From Scenedesmus sp. PABB004 (taxonomy: Eukaryota): a stretch of DNA of 64,000 nt. The first letter of the stretch is position 1, and each line of letters begins with the position of its first letter. A program made the position numbers and the translations under genes. Where the stretch lies: contig JABVCE010000027.1 in assembly GCA_014905635.1 (NCBI GenBank), positions 186,001 through 250,000 on the forward strand, given 5' to 3'. Under the pieces are notes generated by a model that was not told the origin of the DNA, searched no databases, and was given only the letters and a program-made list of their open reading frames with translations. Positions 44 to 64,000 of this stretch are shown here, in pieces.

Positions 44-782
44 TGCGGCAGGGCCACGTCAAGCGCGTGACCGACGAGACGCTGCAGAGCGAGGTGCTCG
101 AGCTCGCGGGCGAGAGCGTCGCCGCGGTGTTTGTCACGTGCCCCGCCGACCCCGCAAAGACGCTCGGCATCAAGCTCCCCTTCCTGGTGCTGGTCGTGAA
201 GAACCTCACAAAGTACTTTAGCTTCGAGGTCCAGGTCCTCGACGACAAGAACGTGCGGCGCCGCTTCCGCGCGAGCAACTACCAGGCGCGGCGGCGGCGG
301 CGCACGGCGGCGGCGGGGCGCGGCGGCGCGGCGGGTCGCGGCGGGGCGCGGCGGGCCGCGGCGGGCCGCGGCGGGGCGCGGCGGCGGCGGCGCGGGCGTG
401 CGAGCCGGCGTCGCGCGGCGCGCGCGCGCAGAGCTCCACGCGCGTGAAGCCCTTCATCTGCACCATGCCGCTGCGCCTCGACGAGGGCTGGAACACCGTG
501 TCCCTCAACCTCGCCGACCTCGTGCGCCGCGTGTACGGTGGGCGCGCGGCGCGCGGCGGGCGGGCGGGCGGGCGGGCGGCGGCCCCGCGCCTCGGAGAGC
601 CTGGCGGCGCCGCCCACGCCGGCCGCTCGCGGCGCGCCGCGCCGCGCGCAGGCACCAACTACGTGGAGGCGCTGCGGCTGCAGGTGCACGCCAACTGCCG
701 CGTGCGCCGCATCTACTTTGCCGACCGCCAGTACGCGGAGGAGGAGCTGCCGCCCGAGTTCAAGCTCTACGTGCCCGCCTGA
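44..782 (+). CDS. CFAP20: Cilia- and flagella-associated protein 20 (BUG22/FAP20), 5'-partial; exons ~44-285, 432-537, 652-782
   Basis: Spliced translation gives [63 protein letters not shown]...|[39 protein letters not shown], the conserved CFAP20 sequence. Intron 286-431 is GC-AG; intron 538-651 is GT-AG. Confidence 0.97.
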
Positions 783-1055
783 GGCCGTCGGGACGGGCCC
801 TCGCTGCGACACGCGAGGGGCTTGCGCCTGTGCGCAGAAGGGCAAACCGCGCCGCTGGGTTCTGGCGTGGTTCCCCGCTCCCGCCACGGGCTTTGGCCGC
901 CACACACGAGCGCGCGCGGCAGCCCCTCCCGCACACTTCCCGCACGCTGCCGTGCACGTCGACACTCCCGGGCGCCCCGCCAGGCCCGGCAGCCGCGCCG
1001 CTGGGCCGCGCCGCCAGCAACGGCAGCCCACGCTGCTGGAATTGCCCCTCTCGCC

Positions 1056-1214
1056 ATGGCTCGCTCCGCGGCCACAGCGCTGGTGCAGGCGCACTACTCG
1101 ACCCTGTGGAGCACCTGCTTCGGCCTGGTCGTGCTGCTCGCGTCGCCGCTGCTCGCGCTGCTGGCCGTGTCCCTGGGGGTGGGCAAGTCCCTTCACGATC
1201 TGCTGGCCCACTGA
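1056..1214 (+). CDS. Small (52 aa) single-pass membrane protein, unknown function
   Basis: gccATGG start context; MARSAATALVQAHYSTLWSTCFGLVVLLASPLLALLAVSLGVGKSLHDLLAH; G/C-ending codons like neighbouring genes; one hydrophobic stretch. Confidence 0.55.
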   Translation: MARSAATALVQAHYSTLWSTCFGLVVLLASPLLALLAVSLGVGKSLHDLLAH

Positions 1215-1659
1215 GCTGAGCGGCTCCGGGATGGCCGGCACGGCGGCCGGTGGGCGCCGCGGGCGTGCGCCGCTGTCGCGCGCAGCAGCGCGCAGCAGCG
1301 GCGGCGGGCGGCGCCGCGGCGCGACCCCCGCCGCGCCGCCGCGCCGCGGGTGGCGGTGGGTGTACTAACAGCGCAGCGCGGGGTTTGGCCAGCGGCGCAT
1401 GGCGGCCGCTTGATGGGCCCGCGCGCGCTGCTGAGCCTTGGCCAGCAGCGCGCGGGGCGACCGGCCGCGTGAGGCGCGCCGACGCCGCCCACCCTCCTGT
1501 GGGCCGCGGCGCGCTGATGTTTTTTGCCGATTTTTGGGGGCGGCGCACGGCGGTCTGAGCAGCGGCAGCAGCAGCGGCAGCGGAGCTCGCTCGCTGAGAA
1601 TGGGGGGCTGCAGCTCACACAGCTGCGCGCGGTGGTGGGGGACGGCGGCGGGCTGCCAG

Positions 1660-1664
1660 TGTAA
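1660..1664 (+). terminator. TGTAA chlorophyte polyadenylation signal (candidate)
   Basis: First TGTAA downstream of CFAP20 and the small ORF; UGUAA is the established Chlorophyceae poly(A) signal. Confidence 0.45.
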
Positions 1665-1759
1665 ACTGGCTGCACCGGCATGGCGCGCACAACTCCAGCG
1701 CTCGCCCACAACTCCAGCAGCGCGCGGCCTCGCGCACGGGGCCCCGGCCGCGCGCGGCT

Positions 1760-3468
1760 CTACTCGCCGCCGCCGCTCGCGGCCGCCGCACCGCCGCCGC
1801 CGTCGCTCGCGGCCGCGGCCGCGCGCGCCCGCTCAGCGCGCGCCGCGGCCGCCGCGAGCTCGCCGCGGCGCAGCGCGCCAAACGCGGCGCGCAGCACGTC
1901 GAGCCGCCCCACGGCGACGTAGGCGTCGTACGCGACCTCGGCGCGCGGCGTCACGGCCGCCGTGATGAGCGGGGCCAGATAGGACGTTAGGTAGGGCCGC
2001 GCCGCCGCGCCGGCGGGGTCGACGTCGGGCCCCACGCGGTACGCGACCAACTCGGTCGACGCGGGGGCGTAGATGCCCACGCCGTGCCCGCTCGCGTCCA
2101 AGTACGCCGCCCAGCGCTCGGTCGGCGTCAGGTGCTCGCCCACGGGGCCCGGCTCCAGCACCAGCAGCCCCCCGCCGGCCCAGCGCGGCGGCGGCGCGGC
2201 GTCCGGCGCGGCGTCCGGCGCGGCGTCCGGCGGCGGCGGCGCGGCGCCCTCGCCGTCAGCCTCCAGCTCGCCGGCGTAGTAGCTGTCCGCCGCGTCGCCC
2301 TGGTCGCCGCCGGCCTCGCCGCCGGCCTCGCCGCCGGCCTCGCCGCCGCCGGCCTCGCCCGCGTAGTCACTGCCGCCAGCCTCGCCGCCGCCGCCGGCCT
2401 CGTCGCCGCCGCCGGCCTCGCCGTCGCCGCCGCCGGCCAGGCCGCCGGCACGGCGTGGCGCCCAGGGCGCGGGGCCGGTGTAGGTCACCAGCAGGCCGAG
2501 GGCGCGCGTGAGGAACAGCGCGGGCACCTCCTGGTGGCAGGGCGGGTGGCTCGCGTTGCCCGAGTAGCGCATGGAGAACCGCACCTGCGGCGGCGCGGGA
2601 GGGCGCCCGCGTGCGTGAGCGCGGCTGCGGCGGCGCGCCGCCCCGTGGCGGCTCGGCCCATGTGGCAGCGCGCGGCGCTGCGGCTGCAGCTGCCGGCTGG
2701 CCGCCGGCCCCGCGCGGCGCGCGGCGCGCGCGCCTTGGCCACCGTCCCGCCTGGCGTCGCCGTCAGCAGCTGCACGGTGGTGGTCATGGTGACGTCGCGC
2801 AGCAGCTGCTGACCGCCCCAGTTGCGTGGGTGTGCCGAGACTCGCACGACGCCGCGGCGCTCGGTCGCGCTCAGCAGCCGCGGGCGGCGGCCCTGCCAGC
2901 TGCCGCCCTGGACCTGCGCGGCGCGGGGCGAGGGCGCGCGATCAGAGTGCGCGCCGCCGGGAGTGCGGGCGGCCGCAGGGCGGGCGCAGGGCGGACTCGC
3001 CGGGTTCCAGACCCGGGGCATGCCGCGCCAGCAGCTCCCGTCGCGGCAGCCGTAGAAGGACTGCTGCATGAGCCTGCCGTTGTCCCAGGTGTTTATGAGA
3101 TTCACGCCGGCGAGCCCCGGCGGCAGCACGGTGCTGGAGAGGTGCGTCACCGCGCCGCCGAGGGCCGGGCTGACGCCCAGCGTGAGCGTGCCGTCGGTGA
3201 GCAGGAGCGTGCCGTCCGGCAGCCGCCGCGCCGCGGCGGCGCTGGCGTTGGCGGCGCGCACGTCCGCCAGGCGCCGCGCCGCGGCGGCGCTGGCGTTGGC
3301 GGCGGCGCGCAGGAGGTGGCGCCCCGGCGGCGCGGCGGGCGCGCCGAGGGCGCCGCCGCAGACCGGCGGCGCCGCGCGGCAGGTGGCAGCGCCGCGCGCC
3401 GCCGGCGCCGCCGCCACCGCGGCGAGCGCCAGCAGCAGCGGCACCACCGCGCGCAGGCGAGACGGCAT
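1760..3468 (-). CDS. Secreted conserved hypothetical protein resembling uncharacterised bacterial beta-sandwich proteins; exons 3468-3001, 2913-2734, 2584-1760
   Basis: Signal peptide MPSRLRAVVPLLLALAAVAAA; globular segments NLINTWDNGRLMQQSFYG...WNP|VQGG, HQEVPALFL...TYTGPAPW, TERWAAYLDASGHGVGIYAP, TSYLAPL join in frame across two GC-AG introns. Confidence 0.75.
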
Positions 3469-4912: not shown

Positions 4913-5206
4913 TCTCCCCTCCTGCTAAGGTGGCCTTCGTTGGGGACGCACGGTGCGGTGGTGTGCGACCCAGCCGCCTCTAGTGATCGCCGTGCTGCAG
5001 AGCTGCTGCGCAAGCCCTGAAGCGCCGCCGCAGCGCCGCGGGCGGCGCACCGCCTGGCTTGGTCCCGGGTTGCTTGTGCTTCGCAGCACTCGCCCCTCCT
5101 GCCCCGGGGGCCAGCTCGCGCGGCCCCGCGCGCGCCGCCGCAGCGGCAGCAGCAGCGGCGGGCGCCGCGACGCAGCCGGGCGGCGCGCCGGCCCCCGCGC
5201 ACCGCC

Positions 5207-7194
5207 ATGGAGGCCCAGCGCACCAAGGTGGTGGTCCGCAACCTGCCGCCCACGCTGGCGCGGGAGGAGTTTGTCGCCACGCTCGGCGAGGCCGCCGCCG
5301 AAGGCGCGTGCGACTGGCTCGCCTACTACCCCGGCAAGATCAGGCGCGCCGCGTGACGCATGGCGTGGCACGTGCCCGCCCGGAGGGCGGCCGACCGCGC
5401 GGCGGCCGCGGCGGGCGCGGCGCCGCTGCCGCGCCCCGCCGCGCGCTGCTGCCGACCGCGCGCCGCCGACCGCGCCTCGCGCCGCGCAGCCTCAAGCGCA
5501 CCGTACCCTCGCGCGCCTTCCTGAACTTCACGTCGCCCGAGGCGGTGCTGGCGTTCCGGGCGCGCTTCGACGGCCGCGTGTTTGGCCGCAGCGGCGGGCA
5601 GCAGCACCGATGCTCCGTGGAGTACGCGCCCATCCAAAAGGTCCCCAGCGCCAACCCCAAGCGCCTCGCGATCGAGGGCACCATCGAGAAGGGTGCGCCG
5701 CGCGCCGCGGAGCGGGGCGCGCGCGGCGCACAGCAGGGCGCGCCAGCCCGCGCCGCGCGCCGCCGACGGCCGCCCGCCGACGCCCCCGCCCGCCGCCCGC
5801 CGCGGCGCGGCGCCAGACGCGGACTACGTGGCCTTTGTGCGCGCGCTGGAGGAGGGCCCGCGCGCCGCGCCGACGGCGCAGGCGCAGCTCGAGGCGGCCG
5901 AGGCCGCGGGCGGCGGCGCCGCGCCCGAGCGGGCGCCGCCGGTCGTCACGCCGCTCATGGCCTTCCTACGAGCCAAGTACGCCGCCGCACCCTTCACGGG
6001 GCGCCGCCCCGCGCGCGGCGGCGCCGCGGCGGCGCGGCGCGAGCGCGCGCGCCTGCCTGCGCTCGAGGTGCGGCGCGGCGCGCGGCGCGGCTGCCGGCGG
6101 GGCGGCGCGGCGCGGCAGTGCCCGGTGAGGGCCGCGCGCGACGCGCCGCCGGCGCCGCCGACCCGCAGGAGGCGGCCGAGAAGCCCTCTGCCAAGGGCCG
6201 GGCCAAGGCCGGCAGCAGCCGGGGCAGCAAGGCGGCCGCCGCGGACGCGGCGACCGCGACCGCGGCGGCGGCCGCCGCGGCGGGCGCGCTGCGCGGCCAG
6301 GCCAAGGCGGGCGGCCGGCCGGGCGCGGCGGTGGCGGCGCCGGCGGCTGCCACGCAGGACGGCGAGCCCGAGGCCGCCGCGCCGCGCCAGGCGGCGGCCA
6401 AGGCCAAGGGCAAGGGCAAGGCCCGTGGCGCCGCAGCGGCGGCCAGCGCGGAGCCGGGCGCAGCTGCCGCGGACGGCGAGGAGGCCCGGCCCGCCCGGGG
6501 CGGCCGCCAGGGGCGGCGCGGCAGCGACGCAGCACCCGGAGCCAGCAGCGGCGCCAGCAGCGGCGCCGCCGAGCCAGCCGCGGGCGCGGGCGCGGCCGGG
6601 CGGCGCGGGGGCAGGGCGCCGGCGGGCGGCCCGCGGGCAGAGGACGGCGGCGAGGCCGCCGCACTCTCCGCGGCGTCGGCCGCTGCGACCTCTGCGGCAG
6701 CGCCGCGCAAGCCGCGCGCCGCCCCCGGCGCCGGTAGCCGCCTCTTTGCTGCGGCAATGCCCAAGCAGCCTGGCGCAGCGGCGGCGGCCAAGGCCCGCGG
6801 CGCCGGCGGCGGCGGCGAGGCGGGCGGCAGCGGCAGCAGCGGCGCGGCCGCGGCGGGGCCGGCAGCGGCCGACGCGGACGCGGGGCCGGCGCCGGAGCGC
6901 GGCGCCAGGCCCGGCAGGGGCGGCAAGGGCGGCGGGCGGCGCGGCGGCAAGGCTGCGCCCGCCACGGCCGGCGGCGGCGAGGCTGGCGACGCTGGCGCGG
7001 CGGCGGCGGCCGCGCTGTCGCAGCTGCGCCTGAGCGACGGCGCTGCCGGCGGCAGCCGCGCCGCCGCAGGCGAGGCAGCGGCGGGCGGCGGCGGCAAGGC
7101 CGCGAGCAGGGGCGGCCGCGGCGGCGGCAGGGGCGGCCGCGGCGGGCGCGGGCAGCAGCAGCAGCCACCGCAGCAGCAGCAGCAGCCGGGGTGA
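5207..7194 (+). CDS. UPF3: Nonsense-mediated decay factor UPF3 (Smg-4/UPF3 RRM-like domain plus long disordered tail)
   Basis: MEAQRTKVVVRNLPPTL...YYPGKIS|LKRTVPSRAFLNF...FRARFDGRVF...CSVEYAPIQKVP...EGTIEK|DADYVAFVRALE...VVTPLMAFLR matches the UPF3 family. First intron 5344-5489 is GC-AG; TGTAA at 7418. Confidence 0.9.
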
Positions 7195-15492: not shown

Positions 15493-15663
15493 ATGTCTGG
15501 CGTGGTCCAGAAGTTCCAGAACCGCGTGAACGCGGTCAAGTTTGTGTATTCCATCCACCTCCACACGCTGCAGGTGCGCGCGGGGCGCCGCGCAGCAGCT
15601 GCGCCCGGCGCGGCGGGCGCCGCAGCGCGCTGGCTGGCTGGGTGGCGCCGCGCGCGCGCGCGG

Positions 15664-15696
<33 letters not shown>

Positions 15697-16226
15697 CCGC
15701 CGCCCACGGCGTCCCGCGTGCCGCGCGCGCGCCCGCGCAGCCATGGCCGGGCGCAGCAAGGCGATCGCGATCGGGTGGCAGCGCGGCAAGCGCCGCCGCG
15801 GCGCGACCGCGAGCGTGCTGCCGCTGCCGTCCAAGGACGGCGGCGGCACGGTGGTGCGCTTCAATGAGAAGTTCATGCTCACCTCCAGCCTCTACCGGGT
15901 GCGCGCCGCGCCGCCGCCGCCCCCCCTTCCCCGGCGACGCAGCGCGCGGCAGCGGCTGCGCACGTGCGCGCCCGCGCGTCCGCGCGCCCTCACGCGCCTC
16001 ACGCCGCGCCGCCGCCGCCGCCGCCGCCGCCGCGGCGTCCGCCGCTCCCAGGCGCCCGGCGCGGACCGCAACAGCCAGCTGGGGCCGTTCAAGAAGAAGG
16101 TGCTCATCCTGGCGGTGCTCGAGACCGACGGCCGCACGCACGCGACGTCGGCGCTCGGGCGCGTCGTGGTGGACCTGGCAGAGTTTGCCTCCATCGACGG
16201 CCAGGTGCGGCGCTGCCTGCGCGCGC

Positions 16227-16292: not shown

Positions 16293-19200
16293 GTGTTTTG
16301 CTGTGTGTGCTCTGATGTGTGGGCCGGCCAGCCAGCGCTCCGGGGCGCGCCCCTCGCCGCGCCCGCGGGCCGCCGCCGACGCGCCGCCCCGGCCCGCCCC
16401 GCCGCGCCCGGGCGCGCAGGAGCTGCGCACGTTTGCTGTCGCGTGCAACAAGGCCATCCACTCGGCCGTCGGCGAGCCGCAGCTCACGCTGACCGTGCGG
16501 TGAGGCGGCGGCGGCGGCGCCAGTGGCGGGGCCGGGGCTGGCGCAGCAGGCGGCGGCGGCGGTCGCGGCAGCGGAGGGCCAGCAGAGGGGCGGCGGCGCG
16601 GGCGGCGCGGGCGGCGGCGGCACGGCGCGGCGCGGCGGCGCGCGCGAGCGCTGCCGCCGCCGCCCCGCCGCGCCGCGCCAGGTGCCACTGGGCCAAGGCG
16701 GGTGTGGACATGACCGAGGATGAGGTGGCCAGCATGAGCACAGACACCACGGGTGCGCCGCGCCGGCCGCGCGCCCGCCTGGCTGCGCGCCCGCCGCCGC
16801 GCCCGCCGCCGCAGCGCGCCCCGCCGCGCGCCTCGTCAGCCCCCCCCCCCCCCCCGCTGCTGCTGCCGCGGCGCAGGCTCTGGCCTGGCGAGCGGCATCA
16901 GGGGCCTCTTCGGGCGCATGCGCGCGGGCAAGGCCAAGCGCGGCGAGGAGCAGGACCTGCACGGCTTTGCCGGCGGCGGCGGCGGTGCGCGGAGCGAGCC
17001 CCCGTGGCGCCCCCTCTGACCGTCGCTCCCTGACGGGCCCTCCCCCGCCGCGCCGCGCCGCGCCGCGCAGCAGAGGGCATGGCCACGATCGGGGAGGAGG
17101 GCGAGGACGGCGGCGCGCCGCGCCGCGGCGGCGCCGCGGGCGACGCGAGCCTCGCCGGCGGCTTTGTCGAGGCTGAGGAGGTGGACTTTGACTCCAACCG
17201 CGGCAGCCTGTGAGCGCGCCGCGCGGCGCGGCGACGCGGCGGCGCGACGGCGGCCGCGCGGCCGGCGGCGGGCCGCGGCGCGCGGGGGAGCGCGCCCACG
17301 GCGCCGCCGCCGCCGCCGCCTGCACGCGCGCGCGCGCGTACGCAGGGACGGCTCGGCCGGCTGGGGCGCGGCGGAGCTGGAGTATGACGCGGTCGGGGCG
17401 CTCAACCTGCACGACGACGACGACGAGCCGCCGCGCCAGCCGCACGCCTCGGGCGGCGGCGCGGCCGCGGCGTCGGCGGCCGCCGCGGCGGGGCGGCGCA
17501 GCGCCGGCGCCACCGCGGCCGCGCCGGCGGGGCCGGCCGACACGTCGGCGCCGGCCACGCCCAGCAGGTGCCGGGGCCGCGGGGCGGGCCCAGCGGGCGC
17601 GCGGCGGCGGCGGCGGCGGCGGCGTCTGCCTGCCTTAGTGACGGGCGCCGCGCCTGACGGCGCTCCCCGCCGCTGGCCCCATCTGTCCGCGCAGGCGCTG
17701 GCGCGGCGACGGCGCGGACGGCGCCGCCGGCAGCGCCGCGAGCAGCGAGCGGGGGGTCGTCTCGCCGGCGCCGCGCGCCGGCCGGCAGGGCCGGTCCACG
17801 TGAGCCGCGCGCCTCGCCGCTGCAGCCGCGCGGGCGGGCGCCGCGGCGCCAGCCCACGTGCCCGCGAGCGCGCAGCGCGCACCGGGGCCCCTGCACCCTC
17901 CCACCCTCGCTGGCCTCCGCTCCCTGCCGCCGCCGCCGCCGCCAGGTCGACGCAGACCGACCTGGCCGACGTGCATGACGTGGCGCCGCAGCTGGACGAC
18001 GTCACGCACCTGCAGGCGCGCCGCGCCGCTCCCGCGCGCCGCCCCCACACCCTCCCCCGCCTCCCGCGCCGCCGCCGCGCGCGCTGGGAGCGCCGCGCGG
18101 CGTGGCGCGCCGCGCGACGAGCGCCCCTCCCGCGCCGCCGCCGCCGCGCCGCCGCGCACGCGCGCAGGACGAGCTGCTGATGGCGGCGGCGGCCGAGTTT
18201 GCCATCTACAACGCCCAGCGCGCGCTGCTCCCGGGGCGCAGCGCGGCGCGCAGCGTGCACGCGCCCGCGCGCCGCATCGCGCGCACGCTCGTCTGCCTCG
18301 GCCGCCAGGTGCGCGCGCGAGCGCGCCCGCGCGCCCGCCGCCGCGCCGCCGCTCCGCGCCGCGCCCGCCGCGACCCTCCCGCGCCGCCGCCCTCAACCCC
18401 TTTCCTGCCCGCACGCGCGCGCGCGCGCGCCGCAGGACGGGCTGCCGTTTGGCCTGCTCGCGCTGCGCCAGGTCAGCGCGAGCGTCGTCGCGGGGCGCGG
18501 CGACATCGGCGGCCTCGCGTTCTGGTGGACCAACTCGGTGCACCTGCGCGGCTTCCTGCAGTCGCTCAACCTCGCCCTCGCGAGCGCCGCGGACGACGAC
18601 GACGACGCGCCGCGCCACTGGGCCGCCGCGGTGCGCGCGCGCGCGCGCGCGCGGCGCACGCGCGCCAGCGGGCGTTGGACGCCCAGGCGCCCCTGCCCTC
18701 GGCGCGTGCGGCGACGACGACGCGGCGCCCGAGCCTCGCCCGCCCGCGCCTCGTCCACCCGCGGCGCAGGAGCTCGTGCCGCGGCTGCTGCAGCAGGAGA
18801 AGTTCATCTTTGACGAGCTGGTGGGTGGCGGCGTGAAGTTCACGCACCTGGGCCCTGCGGCGCGGAGAAGCGCGCGCCCCCCGCGCGGCGCCTCGGGCCT
18901 CGGCTGCGCGACGGCAGCGCCCCGCCGCGCGCGCCTCGCACCGCACACGCGCGCTCACGCGCCCTCGCCCGCGTGCGCAGGTGTCCTACGTGTGGACGCA
19001 CACCTTTGTGCCGGCGGTCGCCGCGTCGCGCGCGCGGCCCGCGAGCATGGCGCTCGCCGCGGGCGTGGTCAAGCGCGCGGGGCAGGAGGCAGCGATGCGC
19101 AAGTGGATCGCCGCGCTGGAGGCGGTCGCGGCGCAGCTGCGCGGCCTCGGGCGCGAGGGCCACGTGTCGACGCTGCGCCACCAGGCGCGCCGCGCCGCGC

Positions 19201-24911: not shown

Positions 24912-26513
24912 ATGGCGCCCGCGCCGCCGGCGCAAGCGGCGGGCGAGCCGCTGGCGGTGATGGCCTCCGGCTTCGCCAAGCTCATGGGTGCGCGCAGCAG
25001 CGGCTTGGACGCCGATCAGGGTGGGCCCGCACGCGCACCGGCCGCCGGTCGCGCGCAACCGCCGCTGCTGCGCGCGGCGCCGCTGCGCCAGTGTCGCAGG
25101 TGGCCACGCGGCTGGTCACGTTCTCCATGAACCTCCTCGTCGCGCGCCAGCTGACGCCCGAGGCCTACGGGGTGCGGCGGCCCCACCGGCGCCGCGCGGC
25201 GAGCAGCGCGCCGCGCTCGGCCACGCTCCCCGCCGCCGCACCACCTCTGCGCCGCGCCCGTCCGCCGCAGCTGTCGGCGGTGCAGTTTCACCTCATCATC
25301 ACCACCATCCTGTTCCTCTCGCGCGAGGGCTTCCGCCGCGGCGGGCTGCGCGTCCGGGACGAGGCCGGCGGCGGCAAGGCGCGGCGCCACGCCGGGACCG
25401 CAGCTCCGGAGAGCAGCGCGGGCACCGCGCAGGGCACGTGAACGCGGCCGGCGGGGCGGCTTGCGCCCGCGACCGCCGCGCCCGCCCGCCCGCAGGCCGG
25501 CGGCGGGAGCGCGAGCGTGGCGGAGCGGGTGCTGCGCACGACGTGGCTCGTGCTGCCGATCGGCGCCGCCGTGTCGGCCGCGGTGTGCGGCTTCGTGCTG
25601 TGGCGCTCGCAGGACGCCGAGCCAGAGTACCGCCAGGCGGTGCTCGTGCACGGTGCAGGGCCGCGCAGGCGCCGCGCGCGCCGACCGCAACGTGGCGCGG
25701 CGCGCGTGCGCGATGCCCGCCGCGCGGGCCGAGCGGCGCGCCGTCGACCGCCCCCCCCCCCGCCCGCGCCGCCCGCGCAGGCGTCGCGGCGCTGCTGGAG
25801 CTGTGCGTCGAGCCGCTGTACATCATCAGCGCGACGCGGCTCGAGTTTGGGCGCCGCGCCGCGATCGAGACCGCCGCGCTGCTGGCCAAATGCGGGCTCA
25901 CGCTCGTGCTCGTGTCGCGCACCGCGCTGCACCCCGCGCGCGTGTTTGCGGCGGCGCAGCTCGCCTACGCGGGCGTCGTCGCGGCCAGCTACGCGGCGTA
26001 CGGCCTGACCCTGGCGGCGGCGGTGCGCGCGCCGCGCCCGCGGGCAGCGCTGCCGCGGCGCGGCGCGCCGGCGCCGAGCGCGCGGCGCCGCTGAGCCCGC
26101 GACGCACCACGCCAGGGCGAGCTGCGCGTGCGGAGCTGGCGCTGGGACGCCGCGGACCGGGCGACGCTGCGCATCACGCGCCTGTTCGGCATCCAGGCGG
26201 TGCGTGCGCCGCCGCGCGGCGCGCGGCGCGGGCCCGACAGCCCCCGACGGACGCCGCGCCGCGCCCGCGGCGCAGGCCGAGAAGCTGCTGCTGGCCGAGG
26301 GCAGCAAGCTGGCGCTGGTGGCGCTGGAGAGCAGCTACAACCAGGGCGTGTACGGGCTGGTGGCCAACCTGGGCAGCCTCGCGGTGCGCCTGCTCTTCAC
26401 GCCGGTGGAGGAGGCGGCCTTCACCGCGTTCAGCAGGTGCGCCCGCCCGCCTGTGTGTGTGTGTCTGTGTGTCTGTGTGTCTGTGTGTCTGTGTGTCTGT
26501 GTGTCTGTGTGTC

Positions 26514-36538: not shown

Positions 36539-38496
36539 ATGGCGGCGGTCGCGGCGCCGCCCTCCCCAGGCTCTGCGCGCGCGGAGGCGGAGCCACAGAC
36601 CATCACCAGTCGCGTGCACGCGCGCGTGGGGCTGCTGGGCAACCCCAGCGACGGCTTTTTTGGAATGACCATCTCGTTCTCGCTCGCAAACTTCTGGGCC
36701 GAGGTGCGCCGCCCGGGCCCTGCGCGCCCGCCCAGGCCCGCAGCGTGCCTGGCGCTGGCCGCAGTCACCGCCGCAACACTTGCCGCCGCAACCGCCGGCC
36801 GCTGCTCGCGCGGCGCGCGGCGCGCGGCGCGCAGGTCACGCTCGCGCCGGCGACGGGCGTGCACTTCCGGCCGCACCCCGAGCACGACGCCTGTGAGTTC
36901 GCCTCGCTCGGCGCGCTGGCGGCACGTGTGGAGGCGCAGGGCTACTACGGCGGCGTCCGGCTGCTCATGGTGCGGCGAGCCTGGCGCGCGGCGTGCGCGC
37001 GGCGCCGGCGCAGCGCCGCTGCTGCCCGCAGCCGCGCCTGGCGCGTGCAGCGCAGCCCACCAGCCAGCCCTCGCCCGCCCGGCGCCGCGGCCGAGCCCCC
37101 GCCCGCTGTGCGCCGCCCACGCCGCGCCCGCCGCGGCGCGCAGGCCATCTGCAAGCGGTTCCACGAGCACTGCGCGGCGCGGGGGCACGCGCTGCCGGAC
37201 CGCGGCTGCGCGCTCAGCTACGACACCAACATCCCGCGCCAGGCGGGGCTCTCGGGCTCGTCCGCCATCATCACCGCGGGTGCGGCGCGCCGCCGGCGCC
37301 ACGCCGCTCGCGCGCTGCGCTTTGCGTCGGCGTCCCGCCCGCGCTCACGCCCAGCCGCGCGCATGCGCGCGCGCGGCGCAGGCCTGAACTGCCTGCTGGC
37401 GCACTATCGCGTGCCGGACCACGTCCTGCCGGTCAGCGAGCGCCCGTCGCTCGTGCTGTCGGCCGAGGCCGAGCTCGGCATCACCGCGGGCTTGCAGGAC
37501 AGGGTCATACAGGCGCGGTGTCCCGCGCGCTGCGCGCCGCGGCGGCGGCGCCAGCTGCGCGCCGGCGCGCGCGGGCGCCCGGCGCGCGGCGCGGCGGGCG
37601 CGTCCGCGGCGCGCTGGCCGACCCACGGGCGGCCCGCGGCGCGTGCGCCCCCCGCGCGGCGGCGCAGGTGTACGGCGGCTGCGTGTACATGGATTTTGAG
37701 CGCGGCCACATGGAGGCGGCCGGGCGGGGGCAGTACGAGTCGCTGGACCCGGGCCTGCTGCCGCGGCTGTGGCTCGTGTGGTGCGACAACCCGAGCGACA
37801 GCGGGCGCGTGCACAGCACGGTGAAGCAGCGCTGGCTCGCGGGCGAGCCGGGCGTGCGCGCGGGCATGGAGGACGTCGCGGCGTGCGCGGCGGCGGGCAG
37901 GTGCGGGCGGCGCACACGCGGGGCTGGGCCAGCCGCCCGCCGCCGCCCCGGGCGGCGGCCCACGCGCGCCCGCACACACTGGTCGCGCGCAGGGCCGCGC
38001 TGCTGGCGGGCGACACCGCCGAGCTGGCGCGGCTGATGGACCGGAACTTTGACCTGCGCAGGTGCAGCCTGCGGCGCCGCGCGGGCGCGGGCGTGGCGGC
38101 GCCGCCGCCGCCGCGCCCGCGCCCCTTCTCACGCGCCCGCGCACGCGCGCCCGCGCCGCGCGCGCAGGCAGATGTTTGGCGACGCCGCGCTGGGCGCGAC
38201 AAACCTGGCCATGATCGAAACGGCGCGCCGCGTGGGCGCGGCGGCCAAGTTCACGGGCAGCGGCGGCGCGGTCGTGGCGCTGTGCCCGGGCGGGGAGGCG
38301 CAGGAGCGCGCGCTGCAAGGTGCGCAGGGGGTCGCCGGCGGGGCAGCGGCGCGGAGCCGCCGCGCGGCCGCCCGGCGCGCCGCCGACTGACGGCCCGCCC
38401 GCCCGCGTCCCGCGCGCAGACGCGTGCGCAGCTGCCGGCTTCCAGTGCGTCGTCGCACGCGTCGCGCCGCCGCTGCACACCGCTGCGCCCGGCTGA
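36539..38496 (+). CDS. GlcAK: Glucuronokinase (GHMP kinase family); 8 exons
   Basis: HARVGLLGNPSDGF, GYYGGVRLL, YDTNIPRQAGLSGSSAI, ELGITAGLQDRVIQ|VYGG, PSDSGRVHSTVKQRW, AAKFTGSGGAVV. Confidence 0.95.
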
Positions 38497-40767: not shown

Positions 40768-49448
<8,681 letters not shown>

Positions 49449-49967: not shown

Positions 49968-51409
49968 ATGGGCTTCGGCGACAGAGGCGGCGGCCGGGGC
50001 GGTCGCGGCGGCGGCCGTGGCGGCTTTGGCGGCCGCGGGGCGGCCGCGGCGGTGGCTTCGGCGGTGGCCGGGGCGGGGGCCGCGGTGGCTTCGGTGGCGG
50101 CCGCGGTGGCGACCGCGGGCGCGGCCGTGGGCGCGGGGGCGGCCGCGGCGGCGTGATGAAGCGGGGCGGCATGAAGGGCGGCGCCAAGGTGCTGGTGGAA
50201 GCGCATCGCCACGAGGGCGTCTTCATCGCGCGCGGCAAGGAGGACTCGCTCGTCACGCGCAACCTGGTGCCCGGCGTCAGCGTGTACGGCGAGAAGCGCA
50301 TCAGCACGGAGGTCGCGGAGAACGAGAAGGTCGAGTATCGCGTGTGGAATCCCTTCCGCAGCAAGCTGGCAGCGGCCATCCTGGCGGGCCTGGACAACAT
50401 CTACATCAAGCCCGGTGAGCGCCCCCCGACCCCCCGCACCCCTCGCGCCCGGCGCAGGGCCGCCGCGCGGCGCGGCGCGCCCGGCGCGGCGCCCGGCGGC
50501 TGGGCAGCAGCGGCGCCGCCGCGCCGCCCGACGCCGCCATCCCCGCCGCGCGCCGCCCCAGGCTCCAAGCTCCTCTACCTCGGCGGCGCGAGCGGCACGT
50601 CGGTGAGCCACTGCAGCGACCTGGTCGGCCCGGAGGGCGCGGTGTATGCGGTCGAGTTCAGCCACCGCAGCGGGCGCGACCTCGTCAACATGGCCAAGCA
50701 GCGGCCCAACGTCATCCCCATTATTGAGGACGCGCGGCACCCCCAGAAGTACCGCATGCTCGTGCCCATGGTCGACGTGGTCTTTGCCGACGTCGCGCAG
50801 CCCGACCAGGCGCGCATCGTGGGCCTCAACGCGCAGGTGCGGCGGCGGCGGCGGCGTGTAGCGCCGGCCGGCGGCGCGCGCGCGCGCCGGCGGCGCGCGC
50901 GGCGCCGGCGGCGCCCGCTGCTGCGCGGCGCGGCTGGGCGCGGGGCAGCGCCGGCGCCCCCGCGCCGCGCGCTCGCTCCTGCCGCTGCCGAGGCCCCGCG
51001 CGCCGCTCACCGGTCCCGCACCCGCGCCGCCGCGCCGCATGCCGATGATGACCTGCCTGCAGTACTTCCTGAAGAACGGCGGTCACTACGTGATCTCGAT
51101 CAAGGCCTCCTGCATCGACTCGACCGCGCAGCCGGAGGCCGTGTTTGCGCGCGAGGTGAAGAAGCTGCAGGAGATGCAGCTCAAGCCCCGCGAGCAGGTG
51201 GGCGGGATCGGGGCCCGGCGACGGCGACGACGGCGACGCGCACGCGGCGGCTGCGCGGGCGCTGCGTGAGAGCTGCGCAGCGGCGCTGCGCGCCGCCCTC
51301 ACTCGCACGCGCGCCCGCGCGTGTGGCGCGCCAGGTGACGCTGGAGCCGTACGAGCGCGACCACGCGATGGTGGTCGGCACCTACCGCCCGCCGCCCAAG
51401 AAGGCGTGA
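49968..51409 (+). CDS. FBL: Fibrillarin / NOP1 rRNA 2'-O-methyltransferase; 4 exons, apparent frameshift near 50040 in the GAR domain
   Basis: RGG-rich N-terminus; [82 protein letters not shown]. Confidence 0.98.
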
Positions 51410-54135: not shown

Positions 54136-57100
54136 ATGGCGGCGGTGCTGGACGACCTGTCCAGCCGGCTGCGCTCCTTCACGGAGGCGGTGGAGGGCGG
54201 CGTCGCGCGGTCGGTCAACGCGCTCGACCGCTTCACCATCCTGCCGCCGCCGCCGCGGCCGCGCGCCGACGCGGGCGCCGCGGCGGCGGCGGCCCAGGAC
54301 GCCGCCGCCGCCAAGCGCGCGCGCGCGGACCGGGAGGCCGTGGGCGACGCGCTGCTCGCGGCGCTGCCGGGTCGCTACTTTGAGCCCGGCGCCGACGCGC
54401 TGCGCCACGAGCTCGCGGCACTCGGCGACGACGCGGCGCGCGACGACATCGACGCCGTGGTGGAGCGCCTCGAGGGCGCGGTGGAGGTGCGCGGCGCGGC
54501 GCGCGCGCGGCGCGGAGCGCCGCCGCGCGCAGCGAGCGCCGCCAGACACGGGCGCCGCCGCCGGCGCCCGCCGCCCGCCGCGCACGCAGGCCGTGAGCGT
54601 GCGGCTGGCCAAGCGCGTCATCAAGAACCAGGACACGCTCATCGCCGGCATCACCAACGTCACGCAGGTCGAGGACGACCTGCGGGTGTGCGCGAGGCCG
54701 CCAGGCTGGCCGCGACCTGCTGCCGCCGCTCGGGCGCGCGCGGTGCAGCGCGCGGCAGGCGCGCGGCGGGCGCGCGCGCCGCGCCGCGCCTCACGGCCCG
54801 CCATCCGCAGGCGGCGCACGTCATCTGCTGCGGCACGCGCGCCGCGCTGCGCGCGGCGGGGGAGGACGTGGCGACGCAGCTCCGCGTCATCACCTGCACG
54901 CGGCGCAAGCAGGCGGCGATGGGCGCGCTGCAGGCGGCCAGCCGCATCAAGCAGGTCAAGGACCTGCAGCAGGCGCTCAGGTGCGAGCCGCTAGCAGCGG
55001 CGCGCGCGCCCGGCGCTGCGGGCGCCGCCGCGGCCCCAACGACCCTGTCCTGCAAGCCCAGCGCGAGCCGCCGCGGTGCCGCCGCGTGTCGCGGACCGCC
55101 CCGCCGCGCCCCGCCGCGCAGGCGCGTGCATGCCGAGGGCGACCACGCGGAGGCCATCCTGATGTGCGCCGATGCGTTCGGCGCGGTCGAGGCGCTGCGC
55201 GCGGCCGGCCTCAAGGCGCGGCGCGGCGCCGCGCCGCGCCGCGGGCGGCCTGCTCCGGCGCGGCCGGGCGCGGCTGCCGCCGACCGCGCCGATGCTGGCG
55301 GCTGCTGCGCAGGTGGCCCCAGAGCTGGCGCTCACGGTGCAGCGGCAGCACTTTGACGCGCTGCAGCAGCTCGACGCCGCGCTCGCGCGCGAGTGCGGCG
55401 CCTTCAGCGGCGCGGGCTACAGCAAGGTGGGTGGAGGGGGGCAGCAGCAGCCGCCGCCGCCGCCCGCCGCTGCTGCGTCGAGCAGCACCGGCGCAGCGGC
55501 CAGGCCCGGCGCGCCGACGCCGCGCCCGCTCGGCGACCGCCGCGCCGCCGCGCGCTGCCGCAGCTGCTGGAGGCGTACCTGCTGGCCGGCCAGCCGGGCC
55601 CGGCGCTGGCGGGCAAGGTGCTCTCGTCGTTCAAGGACGCCATCAACGACGCGGCCGCGCGCCTCGTGCGCGCGCGGGTGCTCGCGCGCGCGGCCGCCGC
55701 GCCGGCCGGCGGCGCCGGCGCCGCGGGGCTGGGGGACGCCACCTCGGACGAGCTCTGCCGGCGCCTGGCGCCCGGCGACGTGCAGCCCTGCCTCGCGGGC
55801 CTGCTGGACGCCGCGGTGCAGCTGCTGACCAGCTTTCACGCGATGGCGGCCTGGCACGCGGCGGGGCTGGCGCAGGCGCGCGCGGCTGCGGCCGCGGCGA
55901 TCAGCAGCGCCGCCGACGCGGCGGGCGGCGCCGCCGCGCCCAGCGCCGCGCAGCTGGAGCAGGCCCACGATGCGACGCGCGTGCTGCTCGAGGCGGTGGC
56001 GGCGGGGCTGGAGGACAGCCGCGCCGCGCTGCTCGACGTGGCAGGCGCGCGCGTGCGGGAGCTGCTCGCCGTCGCGGGCGGCTGCCCAGGCGACGCGTTT
56101 GCTCAGGTGCGGCCCGCGGCGGCGTGCGGGTGACGTGGGCCCAGCCCGCACGCGCACGCCATGCGGGCGAGCCGTCCGCCGGCGCCACCTCCCGCCCGCG
56201 TGCAGGTGGTGGAGGGCGCCCTGGCGTTCGTGGCGGCGGGCGAGGCCTTTGCCGGCGGCAGCACGCCGCTGCGCGGCGCGGTGCTGGGCCAGCTCGGGAG
56301 CTGCGTGGAGCCCTTTGCACGCTCAACCATGGACGCGCTGAAGCTCTCGCTGGCGCTCGAGGACTGGCAGCCGCTCAGCGGTGGCGGTGGCGGCTGCGCC
56401 GTCCTGGCGGCCGGCACCGCCTGCCTGCGCCAGGCGCTGACCGCGTCGCCGTTTGCGCTGCCCGCGCGCGGCGCGCACGCCAGCTTCGACGAGTGGCTGG
56501 CGGCCGGTGGCCACCTGACCTGCGGCCCCGGCGCGGCCGCCGGCGCCCGGGCGCCCGGCGGTGAGGGGCTCTGCGCGCGAGGCGGCCAGGCGGGGGCGGC
56601 CCGCGCCCCGCGCGCCGGCGCGCGCGAGCCCGTCAGATCCCGCCCGACTCCACCCTCTGCTCTGCACGCGCCGCACAGGGCGCGCGGTGCTGCCCGCCGC
56701 GTCCGGCGCGCCCGCGGCGGCGGGTGCGGCGCCCGCCGACGGCGGCGCGCCGCCCCCGCCGGCCTTGCCGCCGCCGCGCGTCGCGACCAAGAGCAGCGCG
56801 CTCGTGCTGCGGCGCATGGCCACCTACGCGTCGCTGATGCCGCTGCTCGGCCCCGCGCGCTGGCCCGCGCTGTGGGGCGGCGTGGCGGAGCTGTTTGACA
56901 ACCTGCTGCTCGCCTGCTTTGTGCTCTTCGGCGGCGTCTCGCTCGAGGCCCTGGTCTGGACCGACGACGCGCTCCCGCACCGCCTGCGCAGCGCGCTGCT
57001 CCGCGTCGCGGCCGCGCCGGGCTGCAAGTACCGCGCGCAGGCGAGCGTGTGGGTTCGTGTGCGCGCGCGTGCGGTGGCGCCCGCCGCCGCGCCGTGTCAC

Positions 57101-57218
57101 CCCGTGCGCCGCCCGGCGCCGCGCGTGGCGCCCAGGTGGAGGAGCTGCAGCGTACGCGGCCGCCCGCGCCGCAGCTCGCCGCGCCCGGCGGCTCCCTGCT
57201 CGACCTGACCTTCCTCAC

Positions 57219-59616: not shown

Positions 59617-62600
59617 ATGGGCTGCGCCCACTCTTCTGCCTGCGCGCCCGATGACGCGCCGGCGAGCGCGTCCAGCCACAGCGCCCGCAGCGCCCCGAGC
59701 AGCCGGCGCAGCGTCCCGAGCGTGCGCGTGATGCCGGCCGACCCCGGCAAGGCCGCCGCGGCGGCGGCCATCAGGGCCGAGGCCGTGGCGGCGGCGGAGG
59801 CGATGTTCGCGGCCAACGCGGGCGCCAGCTTCCGCGACACGTACGTCCGCGCGACGCTCGTCTCGTACGGCGGCTCCGCCAAGGTGCGCCCTGCCGGCGC
59901 GGGCGTGCGCGCGGCGCCGCGGCGCACGCGGGCCGCGCACGCGGGTCGCTCACGCGCCTGCGGCGCCGCGCAGGTGTTCACCGCGGTCAACAAGCACACG
60001 CAGCAGGCGGTCGCGATCAAGGCAATCGCAAAGGTGGTGCCTCGCAGGAGCAGCCCGGGCAGCTTGGGCCGGCCGGCCGCCGCTGGTGCCGGCGGCGAGC
60101 CCGGGCAGCTCACACGCCGGCTGGCCGCCGCGCCGCGCCGTCGCAGAGCACCAAGAGCCCCGAGGCGCAGCGCGCGCGCGTGCTGCAGGAGGTCGGTGCG
60201 ATGCTGCGCGTGCAGCACCACCCGCACGCGGTGCGGCTGCTGGACGCGTTTGAGGACGCCCGGGGCTTCCAGCTGGTCATGCAGCTGCTCAAGGGTGCGG
60301 CGGCGGTTCAGGGCTAGGGCTCGGGGCGCTGGACGGCGCGGGGCGCCCCCGACCTGGCCGCGCCGCGCCCGCGCCGCCGAGCCCGCGCCCGCGTCCGCGG
60401 CCCCACGCCCCACGCCCCACGCCGCCACGCCCGCGCCGCCGTCCCGCACGCCGCGCGCAGGCGGCGAGCTGTTTGAGCACATCACCTCGCGCGCGCCGCT
60501 GACCGAGGCGGGCGCCGCGGCGCTCGCGCGGTCGCTGCTGCAGTACGTCGCGCACGCGCACGGCCTCGGCGTGGCGCACATGGACATCAAGCCCGAAAAC
60601 GTCATGTTTGACAGCGAGGGCGCCGGCGGCGTGCTCAAGGCGCGGCGCGCGCACACGGCGCGCGCGACGCGGCACGTGTGGCGCTCGCCGCCGTGGCGGC
60701 TGCGGGTCCGGCCGGCCCCCGCCGGAGCGCGGCGCGACACGCGTCACGCGCCGCCGCCACCGCGTTGCACACCCGGGCTGCGCAGGTCATCGACCTCGGG
60801 TCGGCCGAGTTTGTGTGCGAGGGCGAGGAGGTGCCGCACGCGTTTGGCACGGTGCGCTACTCGAGCCCCGAGATGGCGGCGCACTCGGCGGGCCCCGCGA
60901 GCGACGTGTGGAGCGTCGGCGTCCTGCTCTGCCAGGCGCGGCGGCGCGGCGCGGCTCTGCGCTCGCGACTCTGGCCCCCCTCGCGGCCGCCGCTGCGGCG
61001 CTCGCGAGCGCCACCCACGCGCGCCCACGCACACGTGGCGCACAGGTGCTGAGCGGGTGCGCTCCGTTTGTCAAGAGCAGCGACTGTGAGACTCTCTCGT
61101 ACATTGCGCGCGGCCCACAGGTGCGCGCGCCCGCCGGCGCCGCAGCGCTGCGCCGTCGGCCGCGCACCGCTCGACCGCGGCGGCGCCAAACCCGCCCGCC
61201 CGCGCGTGCGCCCAGGTCAAGTTCAGCGGCAGCCGCTGGCGCAGCATCAGCGCGGCGGCCAAGGACTGCGTGCGCGCGATGCTCGCGCCCGACCCCGCCG
61301 CGCGGCCGTCGGCGGCGGCGCTGCTGCGCCACCCCTGGCTCGCCGCGGCGGCGCCGGGCACGCCGATCGCGGCGCCGATCGTGGCGCAGCTGCAGCTCTT
61401 CGCGGGCCTCTCCCGCGCGCGCCGGGTCGTGCTGGGGCTCGCGGCCAACTGCCTCAGCGGCGCCGAGGCGAGCGCGGTGCTGGCGAGCTTCCTCGCCGCA
61501 GACTCGGACTTCAACGGCACCCTCGACTACGCGGAGCTCGCGAGCGCCGCAAAGCAGGCGCGTTGGCGCGCCGGCTGTGCCTGTGACTGCGCGCGCCGCG
61601 CCCCGCGGCCCCCCCCCCTCCGCGTCAGCGGCACGGGGACGCGCCGAGCCCACGCCGCGCGGCCGCCGCCGCCGCCGCAGGCCGCGCCGGACCTGGGCGA
61701 GGGCGAGCTGCGCCGCGTGTTCGAGGCGCTGGACGTGGACAACACCGGCACCGTGGACGCGCAGGAGTTCATCGCGGGCGTCCTGCAGGCGCGGGGTCCT
61801 GGGGGCAGCAAGCGGGGCGGGCAGCAAGGGCCCCCGGCGCGCGACGCCGCGCGCGGGCGCGGCTGGCGCGTCGTGAAGACGCCGCCGCCGCCGCCACCGC
61901 CGCCACCGCCGCCGCCGCCGCGCGCCCCGCCAGGTCGCGCTCGCGCCGGCCAAGGCGAGCTCGCTGCTGGAGTCGTCCTTTCACGCCCTCGACAGGTGGC
62001 CGGCGCGCGCGCCCCTGGGGCGCGGCTGCTGCTGCGCCGCCCCGCCCGCGCCGCCGCTGCCGCCGCCCGCGCCCGCGCGCCGTGCCGCGCACGCCCCGTC
62101 ACCGCCGCCCTCTCTGCGCACGCACGCGCAGGGAGCACAAGGGCCACCTCACGCGCGCCGACCTGGTCGAGGGCCTGCGCGTCGCGACGCCGTCCGCGTT
62201 TGCCGCGCTGCACTCGAGCGGCAGCCTCGAGAGCGAGCTCGACGAGGAGTTTGCCGCGCTGGACGCCAACGGCGACGGCGTGGTCACGCTCGAAGAGTTC
62301 CGCGCCGCGCTCTCGCTCGGGCCGGACGGCCTGCCGCAGCTCCTGGGGGGCGCGCCGCCGGCGGCGGCGCCCGCCGCGGCGGCAGCGGCGCGCCGGCGCG
62401 CTCGCCGCTCGGGCCGCGCGGCGCGGCGCCGCCGGGCACGGACCAGGCGGGGCCGCCGAGCCGCGGCGCCGCCGCAGTGCACGCGTCGGCGCACTGAACG
62501 CTCCCACGCCGAGAGGGCGGCGCGCACGCACGCGCGGCCTGCGGGGGGGGGGGGCGAAAGGGACCAGCGCGCATGCGCTGCGAACGCAACGAGATTTTGG

Positions 62601-62708
62601 CACCGCAAACCCGCACCGCCACCCTTCGCCGACCTTGTTGCTCGCGAACGCCCACCCCCCTGTGTGCGACCTGCTGCGTGCCATTCACGCACGCCCGAGG
62701 GCGCTTGA
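59617..62708 (+). CDS. Calcium-dependent protein kinase-like (kinase plus EF-hands); true stop may be 62497 if frameshifted near 62390
   Basis: MGC acylation motif; VAIKAI, GGELFEHI, HMDIKPENVMF, IDLGSA, GTVRYSSPE, DVWSVGV; EF-hands DSDFNGTLDYAE, DVDNTGTVDAQE, DREHKGHLTRAD (degenerate), DANGDGVVTLEE. Confidence 0.92.
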
Positions 62709-63302
62709 TTTCTCCCCCCTGAAAAACGCATTTCCGCCGCACTGCGGCCTGCGCGCGTGCCGAGCGGCGGCGTGCTGTTCGCGCAGCTGGTGACGCACGC
62801 CCGGCGCGCGTGCAAAGTGTCCCGTTCGATCGCTCTCGTCGCCAGCTTTGCATCGGCCGGCCGAGCGGCGGCTGGGCGGCGCTTACGGACCGCCCCGCGG
62901 CGGCGCCGCTTGGGCTTGGGCCTGCGCGCTGTCGCGCGCTGTCGCGCGGAGGCAGGTCACGGCAGGTCGCCGCCGCGCCTCTCACAGCCCCTCCCGACCC
63001 GCCCCGTCGTAATCAAGCGCACCGTGATCACGACCGCGGCCACAGAGACGCACGCAAGCACCTTCGCGTCTCGCTCGCCTCGCCGACCCGACCCTCCGCC
63101 GCGCGTGTCGTCCCCCAGCGGCCTAGAAGCAGAGCCGGCCTCGCCTGCGTGCGCGCCGAGCCGAAGCGCGCGCCGGGTCGCCAACTCACTCGGCGGAGCA
63201 GCAGCAGCAGCCCCCCCCCGCCGCGCAGAGCGCGCGCGAGGGGCGCCACTCCGTCGCTAGCTGCCTCCCGGAACCTCGCTTGTCGCCCGAGACCGGCGCC
63301 GC

Positions 63303-63977
63303 ATGAAGGCCAGCGGCGGCGGCGACGGACTCGGCCCGCAGCGCTGCTGCGAGCGCCGCCCGCCTCTGCGGTGGGCGCTCGGCGCAGCCGCGCTCGTGGC
63401 GTGCGTGGTGGGCGTGGCAGTGCTCATCGCCTACGCCGTGCGCCAGTCGCGCGCGGCGCCCGCGCTCGCCACCGGCGCCGGCAGCACCGCCGCCACCGCT
63501 GGCGCAGAGGCGGCCAGCCTCGGCGCGAGCCTCGGCGCCGGCCGTGGCGCCGCCAGCGGCGGCCGCTGGGCCGCGCTGCCGCCCCCCGACAGCGCCGCGG
63601 CGGACGCGCTGCTCGCCGACCCGGCGTCGCCCGAGTGGCTGCGGCAGCTCTACACGTACCAGCGGGACGCCCTGGTCATAACGCCCGCGCTGACCGAGGC
63701 CTTCCTGCAGCTGCTCGCCGAGCAGCTGCCCGCCGCGGCGCCCGCCGCGCCCGCAGCGCCCACAGCGGCGCCGGCGCGGCGCCCGCTCGCGGCGCGGCCG
63801 GGCGCGGCGGCGGCGGCGCCGCCGGCCCTCGACCTCGCGCCCTTTGTGCGCGTCGCTGCCGACGTGCTGGCCTACCTCCGCAGCGCGCGCAGCACGGCGC
63901 TGCTGCCGCTGCTGCGCGAGTTTGCCGCGAGCGGCGTGCTCGCCCTCGACGGCACCGACCCGGACGCCCTGCAGCAG
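63303..63977 (+). CDS. Type II membrane protein, first exon only (3'-partial), unknown function
   Basis: MKASGGG...WALGAAALVACVVGVAVLIAYAVR (transmembrane helix), then a helical domain PEWLRQLYTYQRDALVITPALTEAFLQLL; probable GC donor at 63978. Confidence 0.6.
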
Positions 63978-64000
63978 GCGCGCGGCGCGCCCGCGCGCCG

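Follow-up and report, generated by a model that had tools for sequence, protein, structure and literature searches.

GC-AG introns of the 5-oxoprolinase gene

We analysed a 64,000-nt stretch of the genome of the chlorophyte Scenedesmus sp. PABB004 (contig JABVCE010000027.1, positions 186,001–250,000; G000:C21:186001-250000 in our numbering), referred to below as the window, for introns that begin with GC instead of GT. OXP1, its 5-oxoprolinase gene, carries ten of them, and judged from sequence such GC-AG introns are confirmed as common in this alga, in the window and elsewhere. A preliminary description of the window had put them at about a quarter of all introns, with 10 of about 28 in OXP1. 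For OXP1 this was accurate: there are exactly 28 introns, and homology chose eight of the ten GC sites when the donor was left free.

40768..49448, + strand: OXP1 gene, 29 exons, 28 introns, 10 of them GC-AG

OXP1 was modelled with a spliced aligner that fits a protein profile to DNA at equal cost for every allowed donor. AG acceptors were imposed, as in all models used here, so that canonical acceptors are an assumption of the counts. The profile was built from 39 long or full-length homologs chosen from 120 retrieved, among which P0026 of Tetradesmus obliquus was closest to the OXP1 product (78% identity), a placement among chlorophytes of the Scenedesmaceae type. The alignment scored 3224 bits with any donor, 3221 bits with GT and GC, and 2939 bits, with a frameshift, with GT only, a cost to GT-only donors of 283 bits. 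Given any donor, the aligner picked GC at 40828, 40989, 41940, 43396, 43870, 44193, 48045 and 48382; homology does not fix the donor at the other two, 41679 and 43113, which fall within variable loops. Banning GC locally cost 5.3–66 bits, and less than 8 bits at 40828, 40989, 41679 and 43113. The ten introns are:

40828..40956, + strand: GC-AG intron; picked with free donor; ban cost 7.3 bits
40989..41118, + strand: GC-AG intron; picked with free donor; ban cost 7.9 bits
41679..41842, + strand: GC-AG intron in a variable loop; from the GT+GC alignment and ab initio, not picked with free donor; ban cost 5.3 bits
41940..42122, + strand: GC-AG intron; picked with free donor; ban cost 55.9 bits; no GT within -30..+60
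43113..43293, + strand: GC-AG intron in a variable loop; ab initio only, homology puts the donor elsewhere in the loop
43396..43528, + strand: GC-AG intron (TIQ|APQ); picked with free donor; 8/8 residues identical on each side; ban cost 16.6 bits
43870..44031, + strand: GC-AG intron; picked with free donor; ban cost 66.2 bits
44193..44306, + strand: GC-AG intron; picked with free donor; ban cost 24.4 bits
48045..48252, + strand: GC-AG intron; picked with free donor; ban cost 53.0 bits
48382..48543, + strand: GC-AG intron; picked with free donor; ban cost 42.2 bits

A metagenome scan with P0026 yielded no intron-bearing algal locus: the best 80 of 196 confirmed loci hold OXP1 as uninterrupted or partial open reading frames (ORFs), and the 12 neighbouring regions scanned are bacterial in look.

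Frequency of GC donors in the genome

The independent PRP8 gene, on contig C19, behaved like OXP1, scoring 3399 bits with GT and GC donors and 3126 bits with GT only, a loss of 273 bits. In its full model of 2340 residues, 11 of the 32 introns are GC, all after an exonic AG, and every one of these 11 junctions keeps the register of one homolog or more, the transcript-derived P0282 and P0316 among them.

For a wider count we used a semi-Markov gene finder that took PRP8 as its seed and then trained itself on 580 kb, drawn from 13 contigs of the 39.97-Mb, 80-contig assembly. Its donor flanks came solely from GT introns, with GG and GA added as decoy donors. Training from a 0.1% start called 232 of 1053 introns GC and from a flat start 240 of 1064, with decoy counts of 15 and 32; a version with separate flank models called 269 of 1069. 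With the GC prior fixed at 1%, the count was still 237 of 1247, and decoy donors stayed at 0–2%. Three models agree on a core set of 958 introns, 764 with GT and 194 with GC donors (20.3%, confidence interval 17.7–22.9); counting only GC donors that follow AG leaves 154/958, or 16.1%. Two held-out tests were made, one on the window and one on 100 kb outside the training sequence, where 38/201, 40/200 and 40/200 introns were called GC. GC donors were present in 16 of 17 genome blocks sampled. When artificial GC donors were spiked in, 243 of 271 were recovered, alongside 17 unspiked GC calls. Rewriting predicted GC donors to GT left no GC calls, a circular result that we do not count as support.

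The GC/GT tally beyond the window that the preliminary description had proposed, run ab initio on the 580-kb sample, thus gave 20–25% GC donors. Its high frequency stands and extends beyond the window; its quarter is the upper end of our range, about a fifth (194/958) being the better figure. From these sequence-based counts the GC share is most likely near 20%, within 16–25%.

Other GC-AG introns of the window

Including those of OXP1, the preliminary description had listed 26 donors in the window. All are GC, one of them a base away from its listed position (61558, not 61557). It had held that protein conservation fixes the exon ends; this is so for 14 of the 26, and loosely for one more, the other 11 resting on the ab initio model. 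Pfam coordinates were checked across the exons flanking GC introns, where 12 of 22 exon queries gave no match. The gene finder recovered 25 of the 26 sites and erred in both directions, missing 60640 and falsely calling GC at 15578 and 18872, both non-AG sites. In all it called 36 of 131 predicted introns in the window GC, at least two of its extra calls being these false ones. The sites outside OXP1, with one candidate absent from the preliminary description, are:

286..431, + strand: CFAP20, GC-AG intron; PF05018 positions run on across it; ab initio
2585..2733, - strand: unnamed signal-peptide gene, GC-AG intron; ab initio only
2914..3000, - strand: signal-peptide gene, GC-AG intron; ab initio only; the sole listed site without exonic AG, with the best intron-side U1 match
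5344..5489, + strand: UPF3, GC-AG intron; PF03467 roughly continuous; ab initio
18016..18167, + strand: NT-C2 gene, GC-AG intron; homologs with free donor; in deposited model P0391
19185..19294, + strand: NT-C2 gene, GC-AG intron; homologs with free donor; in P0391
20457..20600, + strand: NT-C2 gene, GC-AG intron; homologs with free donor; in P0391
22587..22719, - strand: additional candidate GC-AG intron; ab initio only
25379..25495, + strand: RFT1, GC-AG intron; ab initio only, weak (2.0 bits)
31699..31796, + strand: gene described earlier as bZIP (family unconfirmed), GC-AG intron; ab initio only
37513..37667, + strand: gene described earlier as GlcAK, GC-AG intron; ab initio only; two flanking exons without Pfam match
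55216..55312, + strand: gene described earlier as VPS50, GC-AG intron; ab initio only
57041..57135, + strand: same gene, GC-AG intron; ab initio only, weak (3.2 bits)
60640..60785, + strand: CDPK, GC-AG intron; PF00069 runs from 136 to 139 across it; ab initio took GT at 60706, inserting 22 residues
60936..61045, + strand: CDPK, GC-AG intron; the PF00069 match ends exactly at GC, though the query went on 20 codons
61558..61680, + strand: CDPK, GC-AG intron; ab initio
61789..61933, + strand: CDPK, GC-AG intron; ab initio only, weak (2.8 bits)

The three NT-C2 sites are fixed by four algal homologs (14.7–37.9 bits). All 1060 residues of P0391 map to the window, and this model shares the three GC introns. 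It lacks exon 1, beginning only at 15743, and overruns 3' into the next gene (to 22023). In the first part of the gene (15493-15760), homologs continue beyond the GT donor of 15575 as LQ|PWP, but a one-base frameshift follows near 15750. The frame also changes near 50040, in the Gly/Arg-rich N-terminus of the gene at 49968-51409, which we take to be fibrillarin-like. Both shifts are probably single-base assembly indels. Long (CA)n and (GT)n microsatellites lie inside introns of OXP1 (47540-47860) and the NT-C2 gene (16230-16290), and several introns contain short telomere-like CCCTAAA runs (e.g. 44260-44290, 45835-45850).

The expectation that GT-only predictors would mis-annotate this genome is borne out by the damage to OXP1 and PRP8 models (283 and 273 bits), whereas the one deposited model inspected, P0391, kept all its GC introns.

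Could the excess be an artefact of assembly errors, of modelling freedom, or of nearby GT donors that are truly used? The two probable indels speak for some error, as does the region of the U1C gene, which occurs on both C1 and C61 (L024:3809-6870, L011:1-3057; 99.7% identity, 5 gaps and 3 mismatches in 3062 columns), probably as a redundant contig; the two copies share a GC donor in the gene next to it. GC calls at non-AG sites are also often false, as at 15578 and 18872. An error near 0.1%, however, mostly of indels, could not turn one donor in five into GC, and do so selectively after AG. The 11 PRP8 junctions in register, the low decoys, the persistence of GC calls under a 1% prior and the agreement with P0391 further make an artefact very unlikely. 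On this sequence it could trim the GC share towards 16%, not abolish the excess.

Donor sequence and exon-side compensation

GC and GT donors alike read G-Y-G-C-G. G is found at +3 in 97% of GT and 95% of GC donors and at +5 in 97% and 96%, while C at +4 rises from 69% of GT to 88% of GC donors, and C at +6 is found in 64% of GC donors. The consensus GCGCG is unlike the U12 motif. Median intron length (124.5 vs 125) and intron G+C (0.865 vs 0.861) do not differ between GC and GT classes; the CGCAG acceptor ends 119/194 GC and 493/764 GT introns, and a branch-like motif occurs in 18/194 and 100/764. Removing GC...AG introns restores the conserved reading frame in alignments of OXP1, PRP8 and NT-C2 homologs. 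The GC introns thus appear to be short, U2-type introns of the major spliceosome, with a median of 125 nt, in which the T at +2 is replaced by C.

The classes part on the exon side. Exonic AG precedes 154/194 GC and 280/764 GT donors (odds ratio 6.7, p 3e-27), against a baseline of 4.0% of coding GC dinucleotides, and after CAG the GC share is 107/262. This dependence is not a detection bias: of 174 artificial GC donors placed without an exonic AG, 153 were found again. The exon-side compensation proposed in the preliminary description, which had seen AG before almost all its GC donors, is thereby upheld, as is the observation (25 of its 26 sites; 3000 follows CG).

On the intron side, compensation toward the U1 complement was nearly absent: mean matches at +3 to +6 were 1.17 for GC and 1.28 for GT donors, with a small +3A excess (6/154 AG|GC vs 2/280 AG|GT, p 0.03). 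Predicted U1 duplexes average -3.8 kcal/mol for GC and -6.0 for GT donors, the GC donors matching 4.6 of 9 positions on average. In plants and mammals, GC-AG introns typically depend on almost perfect pairing of their own 5' end with U1, unlike those here, whose usual donor mismatches U1 at +2, +4 and +6.

A trade-off between U5 and U6, with compensation in two donor classes, has been described (PMC11732430). Here +4A among GT donors falls from 129/484 to 19/280 after AG, while +5G is found in 262/280 AG|GT and 476/484 non-AG GT donors. AG|GC donors keep +5G in 151 of 154 and so appear to use both anchors.

In LHC genes (L184, L185, L194, L195), 4 of 7 AG|GC donors have +3A, compared with 6/154 of those sampled across the genome. 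Because three LHCA-like paralogs have GC at a single AQ| position, these are not independent observations; additional compensation in such highly expressed genes is possible.

Spliceosome components

The preliminary description had suggested variant U1 or U6 small nuclear RNAs (snRNAs), or variant U1C or PRP8. Two U1 genes were found (L001, L002; C46:321585-321743 and 327202-327360), identical over the gene, inverted in orientation, 5.5 kb apart and canonical at the 5' end. The U6 ACAGAGA box is canonical, as are U5 loop 1 and U4 at the relevant motifs; the U4 and U5 genes are neighbours on C46, less than 1 kb apart (L019). A 5S rRNA gene was noted on contig C12 (L220:49-167). Covariance-model, DNA-similarity and degenerate 5'-end pattern searches of the genome brought up no second type of U1, and none of 11 loci within one mismatch of the 5'-end pattern was a U1. 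The covariance search scored the best 41 of 245 candidates, so a strongly diverged U1 could escape; even so, snRNAs complementary to GC donors are an improbable explanation of the GC-AG introns.

Editing of C to U at +2 in the pre-mRNA, restoring GU before splicing, would account for the canonical snRNAs. Nuclear editing of this kind is not known from chlorophytes, however, and dependence on an exonic AG is what would be expected of a weak donor as such. We consider editing extremely unlikely.

The protein components leave more room. METTL16, with its NPPF motif, U1C, LUC7 and SNRNP27 are all present, and the SNRNP27 Met that matches SNRP-27 M141 is intact. So are the PRP8 residues, mapped by motif, that match the C. 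elegans fidelity residues T524, R540 and D1549 (PMC9723624). PRP8 departs from a broad consensus at 14 positions, 9 of which are common to Chlamydomonas sp. and Tetrabaena; the other five substitutions (G1366, S1436, R1448, Y1704 and G1811, model numbering) are unseen in those Chlamydomonadales homologs that cover them. U1C, compared with human only and with zinc-finger exons of 17 and 14 residues, has Ala11, Ser22 and Tyr28 where the human protein has Thr11, Lys22 and Arg28, at or near the 5' splice-site backbone. In yeast, single Ala changes at those three residues are reported to have no growth effect (PMC4383343). The PRP8 and U1C differences are leads; a variant PRP8 or U1C is not demonstrated, the three fidelity residues of PRP8 being intact and most of its substitutions shared.

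Lineage-specific changes in U1C, LUC7, PRP8 or associated factors might nonetheless lower the penalty on +2C and +4C, with G+C pressure merely filling the space so opened and donor choice leaning on U5, U6 and intron definition, not on U1 pairing. The missing intron-side compensation (+4C 88%, +6C 64%), the weak predicted U1 duplexes, the three U1C residues and the five PRP8 substitutions are in favour. The substitutions shared with Chlamydomonadales, the intact fidelity residues, the yeast result and a base composition that by itself can reach the observed level all argue against, and we regard such relaxation as a minority possibility, at about one chance in four. In a stronger form, lineage-specific changes in U1C, LUC7 or PRP8 would have shifted recognition away from U1 pairing, with canonical snRNAs and GYGCG as the donor that is read; at 95–97%, G+3 and G+5 vary less than the standard U+2 (about 80%). 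This we think rather doubtful, at little more than one in five.

Origin of the GC donors

At one Q|V intron position in LHC genes the donor is GT in L166, L168, L169, L172 and L173 and GC in L184 and L181. GT and GC at a single paralogous position imply that donors switch within existing introns, and the direction would be from GT to GC.

A separate cohort of GC introns might instead stem from a transposon (introner) whose end is read as GC. Introner-born GC donors occur in pelagophytes, and the AG|G context that GC donors prefer resembles a short duplication. Yet when 194 GC and 764 GT introns were compared by similarity, no introner family with target-site repeats emerged: a long similar partner existed for 10 of the GC and 45 of the GT introns, the 12 listed matches were 70–75% identical with classes mixed, and flank repeats were equal (4.2 vs 4.1). 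With GT and GC alternating at the homologous LHC position as well, an introner origin is highly improbable.

Base composition is a likely driver, one that the preliminary description had overlooked. The window is 79.6% G+C and the 17 sampled genome blocks 72.5–80.6%, very high values as in other algae rich in GC-AG introns. Interiors of predicted introns have C at 0.45 and T at 0.07, with GCG/GTG odds of 8.8. Their observed/expected CpG ratio (680-kb sample plus window) is 1.20; CpG is not depleted, so the C of GCG donors would not be eroded by methylation-driven decay. The odds of a GC donor are 0.25, about 35-fold below the 8.8 of intron composition, from which it follows that GC donors are still strongly selected against. 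As a logarithm (ln) this depletion is 3.55 overall, 2.78 after AG and 4.67 otherwise. For Arabidopsis (1235 vs 112437 donors) the corresponding value comes to about 3.5, a comparison weakened by its dependence on an approximate intron C/T of 0.35. By this hand calculation, similar selection would give 1% GC donors there and 20% here; composition would in principle suffice for the observed share.

We therefore favour, as the probable explanation, G+C-ward substitution pressure on AG-anchored donors together with an ordinary major spliceosome that tolerates GC. The genome-wide pressure, whether mutation bias, gene conversion or selection (indistinguishable here), would supply T-to-C changes at +2, and selection would remove most +2C donors, sparing those behind an exonic AG. 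At these, U5 loop 1 and U1 pairing at -3 to +1 would hold the exon end, U6 would hold G+5, and a largely standard spliceosome would cut correctly despite the U1 mismatch at +2.

Several observations weigh against this explanation, beside the caveat on Arabidopsis. Tests of it within the genome were weak or null. GC donors go with low T in their own intron (65/154 vs 43/154, p 0.003) but show no link with T in the other introns of their gene (p 0.17, or 0.27 when genes were permuted), so that local composition is not a robust predictor. Genes whose codon use is LHC-like, an expression proxy, are not depleted of them, and the trend among AG donors is the opposite, probably from poor models at low scores; LHC genes themselves are only suggestively depleted (7/34 vs 154/434 AG donors, p 0.09). 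GC donors in human pair better with U1 than those here, whose poor pairing (4.6/9; -3.8 kcal/mol) hints at some real relaxation. A single selection value, finally, cannot fit Emiliania at about 60%.

GC-AG introns in other genomes

In Emiliania huxleyi, 56–65% of donors are reported as GC and a further 4% as GA, validated by RNA and ascribed to genome G+C (PMC4028052). Like it, Scenedesmus sp. PABB004 is a G+C-rich alga with AG acceptors (imposed here) and GC donors far above 1%; unlike that haptophyte, it has about 20%, no credible GA class and a pattern known from sequence alone. Closer in GC-AG share, of the same order, are the pelagophytes Aureococcus (14–17%) and Pelagomonas (14%), where high G+C is again held responsible, low-G+C Aureoumbra having 0.32% (bioRxiv 10.1101/2024.10.30.620910). 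These are intron-poor stramenopiles with less than one intron per gene according to that preprint, whereas this chlorophyte has about five per predicted gene.

In a table of 121 plant genomes (PMC6310983 supplement 8), in which GC-AG and AT-AC introns are pooled and shares depend on annotation, the top shares of 8.5%, 7.0% and 5.7% all belong to green algae: Ostreococcus tauri (173/2044), Micractinium (8057/114347) and Chlorella sorokiniana (7090/124435). Our alga resembles them in its raised non-GT share, at 2–3 times the maximum of 8.5%. The low count of Monoraphidium neglectum in that table (19/67746) possibly reflects GT-only annotation. Plants overall are given as 1.2% GC-AG (PMC6310983), and conversion of GT to GC donors is described in mammals (PMC3488318); the introns here share with these U2-type GC-AG introns their borders, a reliance on a strong exon end and, probably, the GT-to-GC origin. 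Read-through PRP8 ORFs of other genomes (P0173, P0174, P0285, P0332) have Ala after Gln or Lys where most have Val, cases too few to tally that hint at GC donors in other eukaryotes.

We found no report of GC-AG frequency for Sphaeropleales in the literature searched, which leaves out most subscription papers; the available portions of PMC5556983, PMC6061784, PMC10487979, PMC2694837 and PMC12571836 hold nothing on it. The excess of GC-AG introns is known from G+C-rich algae, and the sequence evidence well supports this genome as a strong new example, unusual for the green lineage, and not as a new mechanism. The few genomes in which GC donors are common thus come to include an intron-rich green alga. 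Gene finders and read aligners for G+C-rich chlorophytes must permit such donors. If changes in spliceosomal proteins did prove responsible, this would be an example of relaxed GU recognition in a green alga that can be cultured, with relatives of about 56% G+C as controls. Most Sphaeropleales are reported to be near that value (PMC12571836), which makes the order a natural comparison for asking whether base composition is enough to remodel the most highly conserved of splice signals or a changed spliceosome is needed as well.

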